Below, one piece after another: positions 25,769 to 34,687 of a stretch of DNA of 64,000 nucleotides. The translations under genes were made by a program, and so were the position numbers. The stretch is taken from NCBI GenBank assembly GCA_000996205.1, contig LBYO01000006.1, forward strand, positions 1,969 through 65,968. Direction: 5' to 3'. This stretch comes from Parcubacteria group bacterium GW2011_GWA1_40_21. GTDB lineage: Bacteria > Patescibacteriota > Minisyncoccia > Phycocordibacterales > GWA1-40-21. Under the pieces are notes generated by a model. It was given only the letters and a program-made list of their open reading frames with translations. It was not told where the DNA came from and ran no database searches. The first letter of the stretch is position 1. Each line of letters begins with the position of its first letter.

Positions 25769-27286
25769 ATGGAAAATGCAAAACCGTTTTATATCCTTGC
25801 TTTCGGATTCACGGGCGGAATATTTTTGAACTCGTTTCACAAGATGGGTTTTTCTTTTTTCCTTTTATCTTTGCTTATTTCTTTGGCGATATTTGTTTAT
25901 GGAAAATTTCTACACTCTGACGCATTAAACAAAAAGACGATTTTTCTAGCATCTTTTTTTATTTTCGCTTTCGCTCTAGGATTATTGCGATATGAAATTA
26001 AAGACTTGCCCAACCGAGACACAATGCTCCAAGAAAATCTAGAACAGAAAGTGATTGTGGAAGGCGTTGTTTCGGACGAGCCGGACAAAAGAGAGAACGG
26101 AGTCAGACTGACTGTAAGTTTCCAAAATATTATAGATGAGGAAAAAACTTTTCCGGTAAAAGCCAAAGGTATAATGACCGCCGATTTTTATCCCGAATAC
26201 CGCTACGGCGACATCTTAAGAATAGAAGGGAAACTCAAGAAACCGCAAAATTTTCAGAATGAAAACGGAAAAACTTTTGACTATGTTTCTTATTTGGGTA
26301 AGGACGATGTTAGCTATGAAATATCTTTTCCAAAGATTGAGATCATCTCGCGAGGGAACGGCAATTTTATAAAAGCGAAATTATACGATTTTAAAAATAA
26401 ATTCATCGGTAATTTCAGCCAGTCCATACCCGAGCCGCACTCGTCTCTCTTAAGCGGACTTCTTCTTGGGGCGAAACAATCGCTAGGAAAAGACTTGCTG
26501 GAAGATTTCAGAAAGGCGGGGGTGATACACATCATCGTTTTGTCGGGCTACAACATCACGATAGTTGCTGAAGCAATTATGTCCGCTTTTTCTTTTCTTC
26601 CGAAATTCGGCAGTATCTCTTTCGGCGCCTTGGGCATTGTCCTCTTCGCGATTATGACCGGCGGAAGCGCGACTGTCATCCGTGCCTCGGCGATGGCGCT
26701 TTTGGTCGTCCTTGCCAGAGCGACAAGAAGGCAATACGACATCACTCGCGCTCTAATCATCGTCGGACTTTTTATGCTTGTTCAGAATCCCAAAATTCTT
26801 GTTTTTGATTCGTCGTTTCAGCTTTCTTTTCTCGCCACGCTCGCTTTGATTTATGTCTCGCCGATAGTGGAGAGAAAATTGCAATTCATCACGCCAAGAT
26901 TCAAGCTCCGAGAATTCGCCACCGCCACAATCTCAACCCAGATTTTCGTCCTGCCACTTCTTCTTTATAAAATGGGGGAGCTGTCGCTCGTCGGACTGCC
27001 CGTCAATATTTTGATTCTGGCTTTTATTCCTCTCACTATGCTTTTCGGTTTCTTGGCGGGAGCGGTGTCTTTCATAAGCGTCGCGATTTCTCTCCCATTC
27101 GCTTTCATTTCTTACGCCCTCCTTTCCTACGAACTAAAAATTGTAGAAATTTTTTCCTCCCTCCCCTTCGCCTCAATCTCAATCCCGTATTTCCCGATGT
27201 GGCTTATGATCGGGGTTTATGCGGTGTATGGGGTGGTGATTTATAGGATGAGAGATATTGCAAACTCCATCAGCACAGAACATTAA
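25769..27286 (+). CDS. comEC: ComEC/Rec2 DNA-internalisation channel (membrane competence domain only)
   Basis: Multi-TM; conserved HIIVLSGYNITIV...ASAMALLVVLA competence-domain blocks; lacks C-terminal MBL domain, which is encoded separately at 33315. Confidence 0.8.
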   Translation: MENAKPFYILAFGFTGGIFLNSFHKMGFSFFLLSLLISLAIFVYGKFLHSDALNKKTIFLASFFIFAFALGLLRYEIKDLPNRDTMLQENLEQKVIVEGVVSDEPDKRENGVRLTVSFQNIIDEEKTFPVKAKGIMTADFYPEYRYGDILRIEGKLKKPQNFQNENGKTFDYVSYLGKDDVSYEISFPKIEIISRGNGNFIKAKLYDFKNKFIGNFSQSIPEPHSSLLSGLLLGAKQSLGKDLLEDFRKAGVIHIIVLSGYNITIVAEAIMSAFSFLPKFGSISFGALGIVLFAIMTGGSATVIRASAMALLVVLARATRRQYDITRALIIVGLFMLVQNPKILVFDSSFQLSFLATLALIYVSPIVERKLQFITPRFKLREFATATISTQIFVLPLLLYKMGELSLVGLPVNILILAFIPLTMLFGFLAGAVSFISVAISLPFAFISYALLSYELKIVEIFSSLPFASISIPYFPMWLMIGVYAVYGVVIYRMRDIANSISTEH

Positions 27287-27805: not shown

Positions 27806-28282
27806 CTATTTGTTCAGCAGTGGAGCGTAATATTCTTTAATCGCTTTGTTAGAGATAATTTTACTTGTTGATTTATTCGCTTCTTTCCACGGAGTGTGAG
27901 CGTGGGTAATATCCACCAACTTGCTTGCGGAGTATCCGCCAAAAGTCCCCCAAACTTTTTTAAGGGTTTCCTTATCTTCATCGGACAAAGATGATTTGTC
28001 TTCCTCGCAAATAATCGGATTGCTTCCATTGTGTCGAAATTTTCGATAAACATCCGGGACAACAGGTCCGTATTCCCATGCTTCAATATTATCGGAAAAA
28101 AGCGGTTTGCCGATTTTTGACAAATAATACGCCTGCGCGAAATAAAGCACCTTTTGGAGCTTTAGGTTTGTTATTCCTTCTCGTTCTTTGTTGTCGCCTA
28201 CAAACGCTTGCGAAGCAAGGTATATAAAATACTTGGCGACATTGCCAGCAGTATACGGAGATTTTATGGGACGAGTGATCAT
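27806..28282 (-). CDS. Panacea-domain (DUF4065, SocA/PanA-like antitoxin domain) protein
   Basis: KLQKVLYFAQAYYLSKIGKPLFSDNIEAWEYGPVVPDVY matches the Panacea/DUF4065 core. Confidence 0.7.
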   Translation of the reverse strand: MITRPIKSPYTAGNVAKYFIYLASQAFVGDNKEREGITNLKLQKVLYFAQAYYLSKIGKPLFSDNIEAWEYGPVVPDVYRKFRHNGSNPIICEEDKSSLSDEDKETLKKVWGTFGGYSASKLVDITHAHTPWKEANKSTSKIISNKAIKEYYAPLLNK

Positions 28283-28864: not shown

Positions 28865-30025
28865 TTAAAATACTTGCCATTTAATCGTGTCTCTACCAAT
28901 TTTCCCAAATCGGTCTCTTACTTCTACAGTCGCCCTGTGCATGCCTCGGCTGTATTGAGTTGTGCTTACATCCCATTTCTGTAGATTCCCTGCAATACTA
29001 TAATTTTCGTCCCAATTAAGACCATCACTGTCATCAAGATCAATTCTATACTCAAGTTCGTCATTGTCTGGGTCTGTCGCTTTAGCTATAAAGAGAAATG
29101 TTGTCCCCCCTGGTGCTGATGTAGGATCGACTGAAAGTCTGACTATCGGTGCTCCGTTTAGAGCTAGGTTTCTCGCTTTTTTGTTTGCCAATATTGGCAA
29201 ATCGCTAATGTTAATAATATTGTTAATACTCTGTATCATTCCCTGGATTTCATAATTTCCTAATTTTACAGCTGTCGGAATTCCCATGACACAAAGATTG
29301 TTTTTATATTCTGCTATTGCTAATCCGCCAGAATTTCCGCTATCGACTTTTGCTGTGACAAAATAATTGTAATCGGGATAGATACTGGTTGGATTATCAT
29401 CGTAAGAAGAGATTATACCATTTGTTACAGTCAAGTTTATTGATGTAACATCACCAGCTTGAGTTTGTGTCATCGTTTGTGTTGTGGCTGGGAAACCAAT
29501 GACGAAGACTGAAGTGGCGAGTGGTAAATATTTTGGACAAGGTTTGAAACTTTCATCTATCAAAGGAACACCATCTGTTACCCCGTTATTATATGTGACT
29601 TTCTTCAATCCAATTATTGCATAATCAATAATCTCATTAATTTCAACTAAAGCGCTACCAATATCCAAATTATATATTGCTCCGTCGGGCTTATCCGTAT
29701 CGGAATTATTTGGATTGTCATAAAGCAATTGACACCTCACCGCTCCCTCGATAACATGATAGTTCGTTAGAAATTGGTAATTATTATATTTCCATATTGA
29801 TCCCGAACCTGACCAACTATTTCCTTTCCCATCATTACATGAAATGTAGCCAACATATTTAAGATATTTGTTGATATTATTTATTGAATTATCGGTCACC
29901 GGCTTTTCTACTGAATAGCTTTGATATTGTCTCACCCCCCAATACCCTCCACCTCCTAAAACTAAAGCGCCAGCGAAAATTGCGATAAGAAGTAGTATTT
30001 GAATAAATCCTTTTTGGTTTGTCAT
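28865..30025 (-). CDS. Secreted trypsin-like (S1) serine peptidase with C-terminal Ig/PKD-like domain
   Basis: Signal anchor; TNYHVIEGA (His), D, GNSGGLA (Ser) catalytic triad blocks; C-terminal DPDNDELEYRIDLDDSDG beta domain. Confidence 0.6.
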   Translation of the reverse strand: MTNQKGFIQILLLIAIFAGALVLGGGGYWGVRQYQSYSVEKPVTDNSINNINKYLKYVGYISCNDGKGNSWSGSGSIWKYNNYQFLTNYHVIEGAVRCQLLYDNPNNSDTDKPDGAIYNLDIGSALVEINEIIDYAIIGLKKVTYNNGVTDGVPLIDESFKPCPKYLPLATSVFVIGFPATTQTMTQTQAGDVTSINLTVTNGIISSYDDNPTSIYPDYNYFVTAKVDSGNSGGLAIAEYKNNLCVMGIPTAVKLGNYEIQGMIQSINNIINISDLPILANKKARNLALNGAPIVRLSVDPTSAPGGTTFLFIAKATDPDNDELEYRIDLDDSDGLNWDENYSIAGNLQKWDVSTTQYSRGMHRATVEVRDRFGKIGRDTIKWQVF

Positions 30026-30099
30026 TCTATAAAATACCCAATATCCTTATTATAAATCTTCGCAAAGGTTTGAAGTTCAATAACATCAACCCTTTGCTG

Positions 30100-30243
30100 T
30101 CACGATTCAACATTGGAAATATGTGATTGAGGGCGCTTCAATTTCTTGGCGACTTGCACTTGTGTCAATCCAGCATCCTCGCGAGCTTTCCTCAATCTCT
30201 CGACAAAGTAGGCGTACTTTTTGGTGTGAATTGACTTGACCAT
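30100..30243 (-). CDS. XRE-family helix-turn-helix transcriptional regulator (47 aa, below the 60-aa ORF-track cutoff)
   Basis: KARE.AGLTQVQVAKKL.....ISNVE Cro/C1-type HTH. Confidence 0.5.
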   Translation of the reverse strand: MVKSIHTKKYAYFVERLRKAREDAGLTQVQVAKKLKRPQSHISNVES

Positions 30244-30269
30244 AATACTATTATCGCCTGTGCAAATAA

Positions 30270-30761
30270 TCAATGAAATTGAAATTTTAATTCCATCCTT
30301 AATGTTTCTGACAAATATTTATTCTTTGAATATTTAATAATCTTCACCTTTTGGAAACCACATCGTTCATAGACTTTAATTGCCCTGAAATTGGTTGGTC
30401 TTACCTCCAAATAAATTTTAGAGATTCCGTTTTTTTTCGCCCTCCCAATAAGAATCTTGATTGCTCTTGAGCCAAGGCCTTTACTCCAATATTTTTTCTC
30501 TCCAATTACAATCTGCGTTTCGTGCCAATCATTTTGCTTTTTAACTAATGATATATGACCAATAACTTCTTTGTCCGCAATCACCATAAAATTATAATCA
30601 TTTTTGTTGTTTAGTATCGCCTGAAAATATTTATTAACTTCTTGATCTGAAATCATTTTTAGAATACCGCTTGTCAATTTAAGCAGTCCTTTGTCCCTCC
30701 ACCATTTCGCAAAATAATTTTTGTCAGACGGCTTGATTTTTCTCAAGTGAATTTTAATCAT
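30270..30761 (-). CDS. GNAT-family N-acetyltransferase
   Basis: QIVIGEKKYWSKGLGSRAI...VYERCGF acetyl-CoA binding motif A/B. Confidence 0.8.
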   Translation of the reverse strand: MIKIHLRKIKPSDKNYFAKWWRDKGLLKLTSGILKMISDQEVNKYFQAILNNKNDYNFMVIADKEVIGHISLVKKQNDWHETQIVIGEKKYWSKGLGSRAIKILIGRAKKNGISKIYLEVRPTNFRAIKVYERCGFQKVKIIKYSKNKYLSETLRMELKFQFH

Positions 30762-30786
30762 AAATAAAAAAATAGGGCTGAGAGCA

Positions 30787-30820
30787 GTATATCACTTTCT
30801 CTCAGCCCTGCGCACACTTC
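30787..30820 (-). terminator. Rho-independent terminator (gggctgagag...ctctcagccc + T7 on minus strand)
   Basis: 10-bp perfect stem 8 nt after the small-peptide stop, followed by ttttttt on the minus strand. Confidence 0.65.
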
Positions 30821-30827
30821 CACTTGA

Positions 30828-30926
30828 TTAGTGGCAGTTGCTAGGTCGCCGACAAGTGCAGAGCACCTTCCTCTTTGGAAGACTCTTCACCGTCAGATTC
30901 AGACTTTTCTTCATCTGCGACTTCAT
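30828..30926 (-). CDS. Candidate Cys-rich precursor peptide (MKSQMKKSLNLTVKSLPKRKVLCTCRRPSNCH), below the 60-aa ORF-track cutoff
   Basis: Strong SD aagggggtga 7 nt upstream of ATG; 36 nt downstream of radical-SAM stop; terminator immediately after; basic leader and C-terminal CxC...CH. Confidence 0.35.
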   Translation of the reverse strand: MKSQMKKSLNLTVKSLPKRKVLCTCRRPSNCH

Positions 30927-30962
30927 TGCTATCACCCCCTTTCTGTCTAATTTAGTTTGAAA

Positions 30963-32381
30963 TCACGCCAACGCAGTTTCGGTATCTATTTCTCGAAGTT
31001 GTTCGGTGAGAAGTTCGCAAGTCATTTGACGATAGAAATCACACATCCGTTCAATTTTCGCGGTGTTGGTTGCGCGAGAGAATTCTTGAGTAATCACGCA
31101 CCCTCCTCCGCATTGGCCTTCAATCATACATCCTTTGCACATTTTCATCGTGCCTGTTAGATGTTCACGAACAAAATTGGAGTATCGGCTATCAGAAGCG
31201 CAGAACGACTCGATTTGAGAAATTGTTCCGAGCCGTGTCGCGCTATAACCGCATCCGTAAATATCCCCTGAAGGACTAACGCACATATTATTTCCCCGAA
31301 CCATTCCACAGAATGCGACATGCGAATCCAGCGTTGAATCATTTAGATTCTCGGCTGGTCTGGACCAAAAACCGGCAATTTCAATATCGAGATTTTTGGC
31401 ATATTGCCGTAAATACATTAATTTACCGACAATATTTTTAATTGGTGTTTGAACCATACCGATAATATCAATATCGATTCGAACTTCCTTCATGTCTCGG
31501 TCATTAGCCCAATCAATTATTTTTTCATCTATGAACTGGAAATTCCAATCGTTGATCGTGACGGCTATACCCTTCATTGGATAACCTTTTTCTGCCAGAT
31601 TTTCAAATCCTTGCGTAATGATTTCAAATGTACCACCTCCGGATTTTGTAAGTCTTACAAGATCGTTACCATCACGAAGACCATCTAGACTTGATGCTAT
31701 TTCTACATTATATTCTTTAAGTTTTTCCGCGATTTTGGGAGTAATCAAAGAGGCATTTGTGTTGATTGAAAAACAAAAATCAAACTCTCTGCCGTAATTC
31801 AATTGACAATATTCAAGCACTTGCTCGATTACTTCCCACGCAAGAATAGGTTCACCTCCTCCAAAATTTATTTCCGCTATCTTTTTACTGTGCTTTCGTA
31901 AAATCTTTAGATATTTTTCTATTGTTTCTTTTGCAATCTCGAAATTCATGAATTTTTTCGGATTTTTTACCCTATCAGACATTTCGAGATTATTAAAGTG
32001 AACGCAATACGAACATCGAAAATTGCACGCCTCGGACATAATGAGTTCAAGGTAATTGATAAGAGATCCGTCATTGATGAATTTTTCTCGCCCTTTCATA
32101 TGCTTCGCAAGAAACTTTCTTTCGTCAAAATATCTCGGGATAAGATAGTAACTTTCAATCAAATCTTGGATGGCTTTTCTGCTATTTTTGTCGCATTTGT
32201 ATTCATCAAGAACAGAATTGAGCTGATGCGGACTGGAGAAAACATCAAGGAAGGATAATATTTCCGTTGAAACAATTTTGGGATTTCCAAAAAGAGAATG
32301 CCAAATTATTGCTTTATCTTTACTTTTAACTATTTGAATAAACTGCGATTTGATCAGGGTTTTATCTTTTGTAGTTAACAT
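30963..32381 (-). CDS. Radical SAM/SPASM-domain peptide-modifying enzyme with roughly 110-aa N-terminal extension
   Basis: CNFRCSYC (CxxxCxxC) at aa about 118; C-terminal SPASM motif CKGCMIEGQCGGGCV (Cx2Cx5Cx3C) plus upstream Cys pairs. Confidence 0.85.
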   Translation of the reverse strand: MLTTKDKTLIKSQFIQIVKSKDKAIIWHSLFGNPKIVSTEILSFLDVFSSPHQLNSVLDEYKCDKNSRKAIQDLIESYYLIPRYFDERKFLAKHMKGREKFINDGSLINYLELIMSEACNFRCSYCVHFNNLEMSDRVKNPKKFMNFEIAKETIEKYLKILRKHSKKIAEINFGGGEPILAWEVIEQVLEYCQLNYGREFDFCFSINTNASLITPKIAEKLKEYNVEIASSLDGLRDGNDLVRLTKSGGGTFEIITQGFENLAEKGYPMKGIAVTINDWNFQFIDEKIIDWANDRDMKEVRIDIDIIGMVQTPIKNIVGKLMYLRQYAKNLDIEIAGFWSRPAENLNDSTLDSHVAFCGMVRGNNMCVSPSGDIYGCGYSATRLGTISQIESFCASDSRYSNFVREHLTGTMKMCKGCMIEGQCGGGCVITQEFSRATNTAKIERMCDFYRQMTCELLTEQLREIDTETALA

Positions 32382-32542: not shown

Positions 32543-33145
32543 TCAGTAATCATGCATAATTTTCTTAAAATTCTCCTCCGCGACATCCCAATTTATATTT
32601 TCAAAAAAGGCTGAGATGTATTCTTTTTTTTGAGAGGGGAGATAGTCAATCATAAAGCTATGCTCCCACATATCGATTCCCATTATGAAAGAGAGACCTG
32701 AGAGATTACCGAGGTGGTGTTCGTCAACCCATGCGTTGAGCAGGCTTTTTGTTTGCGGGTCATAGAATAAAACTGCCCAGCCGATGCCGCGAGTCGTGGC
32801 GACTGTCTTGAATCGGGTAAGCCAATTTTCAAAACTGCCCCAAGTTTCAGTAATTTTTTCTCTAAGTGGGCTTTTGTCGTCCAAAGATTTCGCTCCGCCT
32901 TCGAGTAAGCGGAAATAATATTCGTGATTCCTCATCCCGCAAAACTCAAAACCAAAACGCCTTTGAAGCTCGCTTGTCGCATAAGCGTTTTTCTCTGCAT
33001 CTTTGGGCATTTCTTCAATCTTTTCAAGAATCAAATTGGAATTTTTCACATATCCGGCATAGAGCTTGAGATGCTCCTCAATATTCTTCGCCGATATTCC
33101 TTTCAAGACAGGTAAATCAAATTTTATTTCTTCAAATTTTTTCAT
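32543..33145 (-). CDS. sodA: Fe/Mn superoxide dismutase
   Basis: LPYAY..LEPHI-like N-terminus, H...H, WEHAYY-like (MWEHSFMIDY) and D..H metal ligands. Confidence 0.9.
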   Translation of the reverse strand: MKKFEEIKFDLPVLKGISAKNIEEHLKLYAGYVKNSNLILEKIEEMPKDAEKNAYATSELQRRFGFEFCGMRNHEYYFRLLEGGAKSLDDKSPLREKITETWGSFENWLTRFKTVATTRGIGWAVLFYDPQTKSLLNAWVDEHHLGNLSGLSFIMGIDMWEHSFMIDYLPSQKKEYISAFFENINWDVAEENFKKIMHDY

Positions 33146-33199: not shown

Positions 33200-33264
33200 A
33201 TTTATGCAATTGCATAAATATAAATGGTACATAATTTCAGCTATCGCTGAAATTATGTACCATT
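33200..33264. promoter_or_regulatory. Two adjacent perfect palindromes in the divergent sod / MBL-gene control region
   Basis: atttatgcaattgcataaat (20 bp) and aatggtacataatttcagc-tatc-gctgaaattatgtaccatt (19-bp arms). Confidence 0.4.
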
Positions 33265-33314
33265 TTATAGGTGTCTAGTTATAATTAGAAAAGAAATAGG
33301 TATTAATTCAAATT

Positions 33315-34166
33315 ATGACATCGTCCAATAAATTCAAGTTTTATTTTTTGCTCGGATTTTTGGCGGTTAATATTTTCATCTGGCATACGGTCGTGATGGA
33401 AGACAGGCGGGGGATGCTGAAAGTTTCATTTTTGGATATCGGGCAGGGTGATGCGATTTTTATAGAAGCACCGAATGGCAATCAGGTCTTGATTGATGGT
33501 GGGTCAAATAGAGCGGTATTGAAAGAGCTCGGCAAGGTGATGCCTTTTTACGACAGGACGATTGACGCGGTGATTGCCACCCATCCGGATAAAGACCACA
33601 TCGGCGGGCTGGTTGAAGTATTAAAAAATTATCGCGCGGATATGGTGATGGAGCCGGGCGTTTCTTCCGACACCGGTGTCTATCAAGAATTGGAGAAAAC
33701 CATTGCTGACAAAAAATTACCAAGAATATTGGCGAGAAGAGGAATATCGCTTAATCTGGGTGATGGCGCGCGGCTCAATATTTTATTTCCCGACAGAGAC
33801 ACAGACGAATGGGAGACCAACACCGCTTCAATCGTGGCGAAGCTCGTTTACGGCAACAATTCTTTCCTCCTCACGGGCGATTCGCCGACAGCGATAGAAA
33901 ATTATTTGTCTATGATTGACGGGCGAAATTTAAAAAGCGATGTCTTGAAAGCGGGTCACCACGGCTCCCGAACATCCACTTCGGAATCTTTCGCCAACCT
34001 CGTGTCTCCGGAGTACGCGGTCATCTCCGCCGGCAAAAACAACCAATACGGTCATCCGCACAAAGAAGTGCTAGACATTCTGGAGAAAATAAAATCTGTA
34101 ATACTTAAAACTTACGAAAATGGGACGATTTCGTTTAGTTCGGACGGGGAGCGGATTAGGTTTTAG
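33315..34166 (+). CDS. Metallo-beta-lactamase-fold ComEC C-terminal-domain protein (stand-alone)
   Basis: LDIGQGDAIFI, HPDKDHIGG (HxHxDH), LKAGHHGSRTS blocks of ComEC MBL domain; N-terminal TM anchor. Confidence 0.8.
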   Translation: MTSSNKFKFYFLLGFLAVNIFIWHTVVMEDRRGMLKVSFLDIGQGDAIFIEAPNGNQVLIDGGSNRAVLKELGKVMPFYDRTIDAVIATHPDKDHIGGLVEVLKNYRADMVMEPGVSSDTGVYQELEKTIADKKLPRILARRGISLNLGDGARLNILFPDRDTDEWETNTASIVAKLVYGNNSFLLTGDSPTAIENYLSMIDGRNLKSDVLKAGHHGSRTSTSESFANLVSPEYAVISAGKNNQYGHPHKEVLDILEKIKSVILKTYENGTISFSSDGERIRF

Positions 34167-34221: not shown

Positions 34222-34446
34222 CTAAAAAAGTTTTTCGATCTCATCTCTTTCAATTCCGGCTTGCTTTAAAATGCTTAAAATCGTACCCTTGGGCAAATCT
34301 CTGGTGTGATAAGGAATAGTTACTCGTCTTTTACGCTCCTTGTTATAAAAAATATAATGACTTCCTGTTTTATGATCCAATTGAAAACCTAATTTTTCAA
34401 TCATTTTAATTAACCTCTTTGGGGTTAAAACCGGCAATTTAGGCAT
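34222..34446 (-). CDS. hicA: HicA-family toxin (mRNA interferase)
   Basis: KLGFQLDHKTGSHYIF...VTIPYH...LPKGTILSILKQAGI. Confidence 0.75.
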   Translation of the reverse strand: MPKLPVLTPKRLIKMIEKLGFQLDHKTGSHYIFYNKERKRRVTIPYHTRDLPKGTILSILKQAGIERDEIEKLF

Positions 34447-34687
34447 AGATGATTTTTTTAGTTTCTATGTTTACTGTGGTTACAAAGTTATCAATATCAG
34501 AAGGAATTGATTCTTTGTGTTTTTTAAGGCTATAAATATAGCCCTTAATGGCATCTTTCGCCATCATCTTCGCTTCCTCAAGATTTTTTCCGTAAGTGAT
34601 GCAACCCGGCAGGCTTGGAACAAGCACAGTAAAACCTCCCTCTTGTTCAGGTCTGAATATCAAATTATAATGCAATGTTTTTGTCAT
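34439..34687 (-). CDS. hicB: HicB-family antitoxin
   Basis: YNLIFRPEQEGGFTVLVPSLPGCITYGKNLEEA UPF0150 pattern; 8-nt overlap with hicA. Confidence 0.75.
   Translation of the reverse strand: MTKTLHYNLIFRPEQEGGFTVLVPSLPGCITYGKNLEEAKMMAKDAIKGYIYSLKKHKESIPSDIDNFVTTVNIETKKIIYA

Follow-up and report, generated by a model that had tools for sequence, protein, structure and literature searches.

The stretch analysed here, a 64-kb window of contig LBYO01000006.1 from Parcubacteria group bacterium GW2011_GWA1_40_21, carries on its minus strand the genes for a radical S-adenosylmethionine (SAM)/SPASM enzyme, a 32-aa cysteine-containing peptide and a GNAT acetyltransferase. Comparison with 50 related loci suggests, with moderate confidence, that these genes form an undescribed cassette of Patescibacteria (candidate phyla radiation, CPR) that resembles systems for ribosomally synthesised peptides that are modified post-translationally (RiPPs), is spreading horizontally and probably forms cysteine thioethers. 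Enzyme and peptide were conserved together, the C-terminal core of the peptide was kept by selection at the protein level, and the third gene, which lies behind a conserved hairpin, was swapped among three types of transferase.

Gene order and co-conservation of the cassette

Coordinates are positions in the window, and the cassette genes and the flanking genes discussed with them lie on the minus strand. The enzyme gene (472 aa, 30963-32381) is an open reading frame (ORF) with a Pfam Radical_SAM match. Exactly 36 nt after its stop begins the ORF of the 32-aa precursor-like peptide MKSQMKKSLNLTVKSLPKRKVLCTCRRPSNCH (30828-30926), as the original prediction had placed it. The Shine-Dalgarno sequence of the peptide, AAAGGGGGTGAT (30931-30942), lies 4 nt upstream of its ATG. 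It had been described as the strongest in the window; it is indeed very strong (-16.8 kcal/mol) but ranks as the second-best anti-Shine-Dalgarno match in the 64 kb, the sole better one lying inside the enzyme ORF over the codons for GGGEP. An equivalent sequence, AAGGAGGTGA, with the in-frame reading 'RKEV', preceded the peptide in most related loci.

One genome for each of 185,579 GTDB species was scanned with motifs invariant in the family, which produced 50 loci with enzymes of 37-76% identity, almost all of them from Patescibacteria metagenome-assembled genomes (MAGs). Besides an identical protein labelled 'Parcubacteria group bacterium GW2011_GWA1_4...', a protein search returned >120 enzyme clusters with 59-77% identity, which came from Azam-, Uhr-, Brenner-, Magasanik-, Peregrini- and Saccharibacteria. 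The original prediction had proposed that a short Cys-rich ORF should recur next to orthologues of the enzyme, and the peptide did accompany the enzyme in every locus with readable DNA (48/48). L013, an apparent exception, is part of this count: there the peptide adjoins a second copy of the enzyme, encoded on the opposite strand. A lone 32-aa ORF would be meaningless; it is this recurrence that carries weight.

Where the downstream DNA was readable, the related peptides were 24-38 aa long and began 0-40 nt after the enzyme. They shared a Lys/Arg-rich N-terminal half, frequently with an L-P-K-x-K-V-L stretch, and a C-terminus of the form T-C-[QRK]-x-P-S-N-C-[H]-stop. In the window this core reads T-C-R-R-P-S-N-C-H followed by the stop (30831-30857) and is conserved across the related loci. 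Both Cys, the Ser and the Asn were invariant among 47 aligned copies, the Thr and the Pro were kept in 45 of the 47, and the final residue was His in 42. The first Cys of the 'CTC' in the window peptide was variable (C/N/M/A). The description of a Lys-rich leader followed by a Cys-rich core thus stands for the C-terminal Cys core, with only two of the three Cys conserved.

The core remained T-C-x-x-P-S-N-C while the identity of the enzymes fell to 37-38%. Its invariant residues were encoded by mixed synonymous codons (TGC/TGT 24/23; ACC/ACT/ACA; all four CCN; AGC/AGT; AAC/AAT), which argues for selection on the peptide as a protein and not on the RNA. A search of the peptide and hairpin region against Rfam returned nothing meaningful. 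Overall, a co-conserved peptide with a varying N-terminal half and an invariant C-terminal core under protein-level selection is the pattern of a RiPP system. The gene is essentially unannotated: the exact sequence of the window peptide was absent from the protein collection, where only two Saccharibacteria versions were present.

Between the peptide and the third gene lies an intrinsic-terminator-like hairpin (30774-30809; 13-bp stem, free energy -22.3 kcal/mol by RNAfold) followed by a T-run (30762-30773). Both elements had been predicted 8 nt after the peptide stop; they are real, but the hairpin starts 18 nt past it. With a loop exceeding 8 nt, the hairpin escapes a standard terminator scan. 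In a scan for stem and T-run the combination was found between peptide and transferase in 43-46 of the 48 loci compared with 21 of 480 control segments. Stem sequence varied by lineage, with compensatory changes. In the window the GNAT ATG follows directly after the T-run, and across loci the transferase ATG was 6-40 nt after the hairpin and T-run. As this leaves no space for a separate promoter, the transferase is probably expressed by read-through past the hairpin.

Clustering of the neighbouring ORFs of at least 70 aa across 51 loci (the 50 and the window) showed a single further conserved position, directly after the hairpin, while the other flanking genes varied from locus to locus. This position was held by a Pol-beta-type nucleotidyltransferase (NTase) of about 238 aa in 29 loci, by a GNAT (about 160 aa) in the window and 18 other loci, and by a class I SAM methyltransferase in three loci, in two of which a GNAT came after it. 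The window GNAT (163 aa, 30270-30761) matched Pfam Acetyltransf_1 and Acetyltransf_3 (E 1e-17), and its predicted place in the unit therefore holds in the form of one of three interchangeable transferases. The GNATs had a median identity of 62% compared with 67% for their enzymes (Spearman correlation of partner and enzyme identity 0.53), and the NTases an identity of 33% compared with 48% (Spearman 0.79). Since transferase identity tracks enzyme identity, the transferases are integral to the cassette. The types were mixed among enzymes 85-91% identical to one another, which indicates frequent exchange.

The nearest characterised relatives of the GNAT were streptothricin and aminoglycoside acetyltransferases, RimI and N-alpha-acetyltransferases. 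The NTase gave weak matches to lincosamide (Lnu) and aminoglycoside (ANT) nucleotidyltransferases and to the MntA antitoxin, covering the catalytic motif alone. PADLOC returned only generic viperin and NTase matches.

Additional genes were observed at some loci. A kinase-like protein of ~200 aa with a P-loop (GGVSGVGKSK) followed the NTase in three Azambacteria-type loci (L003 2812-3429, L004 6314-6922 and L027 6294-6887; 78-83% identity) and may be a lineage-specific fourth cassette gene. A second radical SAM/SPASM paralogue was present in several loci (L013, minus strand; L027 7188-8585; L004 3-905; L023, upstream ORF). In L013 the retrieved enzyme copy keeps the hairpin without the peptide, and the peptide lies beside the other copy, ~0.6 kb from the start of that strand.

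Enzyme family and predicted chemistry

The enzyme matched Radical_SAM PF04055 with an E-value of 4.6e-20 (72.9 bits, cutoff 29.5). Its CX3CX2C cluster motif (32004-32027), characteristic of the radical SAM superfamily, was invariant in an alignment of 29 homologues as C119-x3-C123-x2-C126; the motif had been correctly recognised, with its position off by one at aa 118. The SPASM region (31041-31310) contained eight Cys invariant in the same alignment: C358, C367-x4-G372-x4-C377, C415-x2-C418-x5-C424-x3-C428 and C447. These include the Cx2Cx5Cx3C motif of the original prediction and agree with the seven-Cys SPASM pattern (CX9-15GX4C ... CX2CX5CX3C ... C), with C358 as an extra upstream Cys. As the Pfam SPASM model gave no match, the domain was assigned through motif and homology; in both structural and profile comparisons the region aligned with the SPASM domain found in TigE, in CteB and in the anaerobic sulfatase-maturating enzyme (anSME).

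The closest solved structure was that of TigE. The family profile matched its crystal structure 8VPO with an E-value of 7e-49 over enzyme residues 8-458 (22% identity), and the AlphaFold2 model of the enzyme (predicted local distance difference test score, pLDDT, 74; predicted template modelling score, pTM, 0.74) was placed by Foldseek nearest to TigE (TM-score 0.68-0.71), followed by CteB, anSME, ChlB and SuiB. The N-terminal ~105 aa (32067-32381) would form a winged-helix, leader-binding domain like a RiPP recognition element (RRE), as judged from the model and the TigE alignment. The modelled region consisted of strands at 8-38, three helices at 39-76 and a strand at 80-82 (pLDDT about 80-90) and aligned by profile to TigE residues 6-85, where residues 3-85 are the crystallographic RRE (PMC10878394). 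Overall, motifs and model support the predicted peptide-maturase layout, in which a putative RRE-like domain at the N-terminus is followed by a radical SAM core and then by SPASM.

The enzyme would share this layout with TigE/TvgB; the two are alignable end to end and carry a G-x-W motif at the same position (PDB 8VPO; PMC10878394). In the TvgB/TigE cyclopropyl synthases the motif is a strictly conserved GYW, whose Tyr ligates auxiliary cluster I (Aux I), and the substrate has a conserved Val/Ile in a repeated motif (PMC10878394). The aligned motif of the enzyme is G337-F338-W339, with the Phe nearly invariant among the homologues, and the enzyme also has an extra Cys, C367. The substrate would here be a peptide with a single C-terminal T-C-x-x-P-S-N-C core, with neither a repeat nor an invariant Val or Ile. 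Assignment as a cyclopropyl synthase was therefore rejected, and with Phe in place of the family-defining Tyr the enzyme is, on sequence, a TigE relative that falls outside the cyclopropyl synthases by the GYW criterion.

The NCBIfam models ranked for the enzyme were PapB, CefB, QhpD (subunit maturase), CcpM, anSME, HxsB, Nif11 maturase, RumMC, YhhB and SCIFF maturase. Cys-targeting, thioether-forming maturases dominated this ranking (PapB, CefB, QhpD, CcpM, RumMC and SCIFF maturase). Clustering with sulfatase maturases had been named as the outcome that would speak against a peptide maturase; PapB, CefB, QhpD and CcpM all scored above anSME. The window enzyme carries the COG-based label 'arylsulfatase regulator (Fe-S oxidoreductase)'. 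Membership of the PapB, SCIFF and anSME families was rejected, as the scores were far under the cutoffs: 137.6 bits compared with 340 for the PapB-family ranthipeptide maturase (NF047865), 80.3 compared with 425 for the SCIFF maturase (TIGR03974) and 94.3 compared with 349 for the anaerobic sulfatase maturase (TIGR03942).

The cassette resembles SCIFF/ranthipeptide pairs (PapB, TIGR03974) and sactisynthases (CteB) in its minimal unit of enzyme and peptide and in the Cys-containing C-terminal core; PapB was also the best-scoring model and CteB the second-best structural match. It differs from the SCIFF/ranthipeptide pairs in these scores, in having two conserved Cys in ~30 residues rather than the six Cys in ~45 residues of a SCIFF peptide, in placing the peptide downstream of the enzyme, in its obligatory swappable transferase and in being almost confined to Patescibacteria.

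A working model for the cassette can be proposed from these features. Through its fused RRE-like domain the enzyme would recognise the ~30-aa peptide by its Lys-rich leader, with the recurrent L-P-K-x-K-V-L stretch as the likely contact, and SAM-derived radical chemistry would modify the invariant C-terminal core. In sactipeptides the sulfur of a Cys is bonded to the alpha-carbon of an acceptor residue, in ranthipeptides to the beta- or gamma-carbon. The most likely product would carry one or two such Cys thioether bridges within the peptide, as in sacti- or ranthipeptides, since the core has two invariant Cys and no invariant aliphatic or aromatic residue, and Cys-directed maturases lead the ranking. 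The very strong Shine-Dalgarno sequence would give abundant peptide, with the hairpin and T-run leaving the third gene to read-through transcripts only. The transferase would then add AMP/NMP, acetyl or methyl to the product, either as a tailoring step or as a neutralising one for self-protection. Given three chemically different transferases and an unchanging core, blocking or capping of one product fits at least as well as tailoring. In microcin C, the RimL-like GNAT domain of MccE in the peptide-antibiotic cluster inactivates the product by acetylation. This offers a possible model of self-immunity for the transferase, but no sequence-specific relationship links the two, their maturation chemistries are entirely different, and an NTase or methyltransferase can here replace the GNAT.

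Several points weigh against a thioether-forming RiPP cassette. The Pfam SPASM and PqqD models gave no match to the whole enzyme or to its isolated N- and C-terminal parts even at E ≤10, so that the RRE and SPASM calls were made from motifs, from the alignment with TigE and from the AlphaFold2 model, and the enzyme scored below every curated NCBIfam cutoff. TigE, the closest solved relative, makes cyclopropylglycine and not thioethers. With eight Cys, which would fully ligate both auxiliary clusters as in anSME, the SPASM region presumably has no open Aux I site of the kind through which CteB binds a Cys of its substrate. The loci were gathered via the enzyme, and peptides free of an enzyme would escape the count. 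The target of the transferase could be something other than the peptide. Finally, no conserved leader peptidase or exporter was found near the cassette in the 51 loci, which is unusual for a secreted RiPP and leaves room for an intracellular role of the peptide.

In view of the relationship to TigE and of the eight-Cys SPASM pattern, other chemistries are also conceivable: the same cassette could act on its core without thioether formation, by oxidising a Cys or Ser to a formylglycine-like aldehyde as in anSME, by a C-C cross-link or cyclopropanation as in TigE, or by epimerisation. This is considered unlikely. It would draw on the structural proximity of TigE, on the anSME score and on the pattern C-x8-C-x9-C ... 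C-x2-C-x5-C-x3-C ... C, which resembles that of anSME; the C-x-x-P-S of the core also loosely recalls the sulfatase motif C-x-P-x-R. However, the GFW motif and the lack of an invariant Val or Ile separate the cassette from TigE. anSME scored under the Cys-peptide maturases, has neither an RRE nor a dedicated small peptide, and acts on C/S-x-P/A-x-R in a sulfatase, whereas the partner here is a ~30-aa peptide with C-x-x-P-S-N, a spacing unlike the sulfatase motif. The formation of thioethers is preferred as the probable chemistry.

Distribution, alternative roles and neighbouring genes

In pairs of genomes sharing flanking genes, the enzyme was almost always more alike than the flanking protein (76% compared with 44%, 79% with 33%, 52% with 37% and 85% with 58% identity), with the qualification that paralogues may be among the shared flanking pairs. 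Across MAGs labelled Ryan-, Brenner-, Magasanik-, Portnoy- and Peregrinibacteria the enzymes were 80-92% identical, whereas two enzymes from Peregrinibacteria, or two from Azambacteria, shared 63-64%. Higher identity across than within lineages and the presence of only 50 loci among the 185,579 species suggest an accessory cassette that spread horizontally among CPR bacteria. Viral contigs in IMG/VR contained only distant generic radical SAM proteins and no close relative of the enzyme, and thus gave no sign of phage carriage.

A few copies of the cassette were found in MAGs with non-CPR labels, including one on a 60%-GC contig. This locus, L017 (DATATE010000211.1, 128 kb), carried a complete cassette of enzyme, peptide and NTase on a 60%-GC stretch in a MAG labelled Pseudonocardiaceae. 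Either the cassette was transferred beyond the CPR here, or the contig was binned wrongly or mislabelled. Other loci with implausible labels were assigned to Gammaproteobacteria, Omnitrophica, Anaerolineales and Oscillospiraceae.

The patchy distribution also bears on what the peptide might be for. A role as precursor for a cofactor or regulator inside the cell, on the lines of PqqA/PqqE or MftA/MftC and with the transferase as a biosynthetic step, instead of a secreted or antagonistic role, would suit the very short peptide with its invariant core at the extreme C-terminus, the unusually strong conservation of enzyme and core and the lack of a conserved exporter or protease nearby. Mycofactocin (MftA/MftC) and pyrroloquinoline quinone (PqqA/PqqE) likewise combine a very short precursor, with invariant residues at or near its C-terminus, and a radical SAM/SPASM enzyme aided by an RRE; the MftC model scored the enzyme at 55 bits. 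Such a role is nevertheless improbable, since the cassette is accessory and probably horizontally transferred with a phylogeny incongruent with taxonomy, the RRE-like domain is here fused, neither downstream pathway enzymes nor a redox partner enzyme are conserved nearby, and three chemically different interchangeable transferases would be odd for a fixed pathway.

There is also a slim chance that the cassette is a toxin-antitoxin-like or conflict module, in which the GNAT or NTase would act as a toxin made at low levels, like the toxins that acetylate or nucleotidylate tRNA, with the enzyme and peptide as antidote or controller. A conserved upstream module, a swappable downstream effector throttled by a terminator and the mobile-looking horizontal distribution would fit this arrangement, as would the gene sizes, which are consistent with GNAT and NTase toxins. 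However, the GNAT was nearest to RimI-type, streptothricin and aminoglycoside acetyltransferases and not to known toxins, the NTase matches were confined to the catalytic motif in Lnu, ANT and the MntA antitoxin, the PADLOC matches were generic, and radical SAM enzymes are not known to make antitoxins.

On either side of the cassette lie genes that the original prediction had drawn into the system. Upstream, an Fe/Mn superoxide dismutase (SOD; 32543-33145) is separated from the enzyme gene by 160 nt. Downstream of the GNAT are an XRE/helix-turn-helix gene (30022-30243) with an in-frame TGA (30100-30102) and a Trypsin_2 protease of 386 aa with an N-terminal hydrophobic segment (28865-30025). 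Pfam confirmed the identities of the GNAT, the protease and the SOD, as well as the helix-turn-helix identity of the XRE gene, whose reading is cut short by the TGA. The comparison gave no support for their proposed functions: the XRE as regulator, the protease as leader-removal enzyme and the SOD as locus member were each found beside the cassette in 0 of the 50 other loci, and on this comparison the three genes are bystanders. A larger single locus, with the protease removing the leader, the XRE gene regulating and the SOD protecting the Fe-S enzyme, is very improbable despite the co-directional and close arrangement in the window, given this absence elsewhere, the interrupted XRE gene being translationally coupled to the protease and not to the cassette, and the terminator-like hairpin that parts enzyme and peptide from all downstream genes.

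The XRE gene and the protease form a unit of their own, since the extended XRE frame overlaps the start of the protease gene by a terminal ATGA. The XRE gene reads MVKS...SHISNVES-TGA-QQRVDVIELQTFAKIYNKDIGYFIE, and the TGA presumably sits where HTH_3 proteins usually carry Gly (E-x-G-x-R). The likely cause is a nonsense mutation from GGA to TGA, decay into a pseudogene or an error in the sequence, with readthrough as another possibility; the other genes of the window read normally with TGA as stop. The C-terminal ~95-aa extension of the protease (28865-29150, minus strand) resembles a PKD/Ig-like beta domain by eye and had no Pfam match.

Further observations concern the surroundings of the cassette. 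A ComEC-like competence-domain ORF is found at 25769-27286 and an ORF resembling a metallo-beta-lactamase-fold (ComEC C-terminal-like) domain by sequence motifs at 33315-34166, both on the plus strand. The ~6 kb between them carry genes on the opposite strand (SocA/Panacea, a membrane protein of 95 aa, the protease, the XRE gene, the cassette and the SOD) and may be an island inserted into or beside comEC; no convincing flanking direct repeats or GC shift were found around 27.3-33.3 kb. In L038 a ComEC-like ORF is about 2.6 kb from the cassette. The SocA/Panacea antitoxin domain (Pfam E 1e-27) belongs to a 158-aa protein at 27806-28282 (minus strand). Overlapping ORFs of 74 and 82 aa at 34222-34687 (minus strand) resemble a HicA/HicB toxin-antitoxin pair by sequence alone. 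At 33222-33265 two 20-bp arms form a perfect inverted repeat around a 4-nt loop; it is terminator-like on the minus strand and lies between the SOD and the divergent metallo-beta-lactamase-fold gene.

Novelty and significance

Genomes of CPR/Patescibacteria are tiny, and for a long time specialised peptides were believed to be almost absent from them. Systems that pair a radical SAM/SPASM maturase with a precursor are already known as a kind; new here are the precursor, the obligatory swappable transferase, the unusually strong conservation and the nearly CPR-confined distribution. In line with the original prediction of an undescribed system, enzyme and peptide were covered by no NCBIfam equivalog, Pfam family or PADLOC model, and no description of the cassette was found in the searchable literature under CPR/Patescibacteria radical SAM, RiPP, ranthipeptide, sactipeptide or the PSNCH motif.

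An important, transferable function is suggested by the retention and exchange of the cassette across CPR lineages, including Nanosynbacter-type Saccharibacteria of animals, and also by the invariant core peptide and an enzyme more conserved than neighbouring housekeeping genes. For new radical SAM chemistry the cassette provides a small enzyme and substrate pair that can be tested, and it is also a natural experiment in which three transferase types replace one another. In addition, it gives a rule for locating an unannotated small gene, as the peptide is missing from protein databases.

A bolder proposal, doubtful but possible, is a CPR-specific RiPP class in which an invariant octapeptide core bears an uncatalogued cross-link, and in which interchangeable enzymes that AMPylate, acetylate or methylate gate its activity or neutralise it. 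If this were true, the cassette would be a horizontally traded weapon-plus-immunity or signalling module of episymbiotic ultra-small bacteria, directed at their hosts or competitors.

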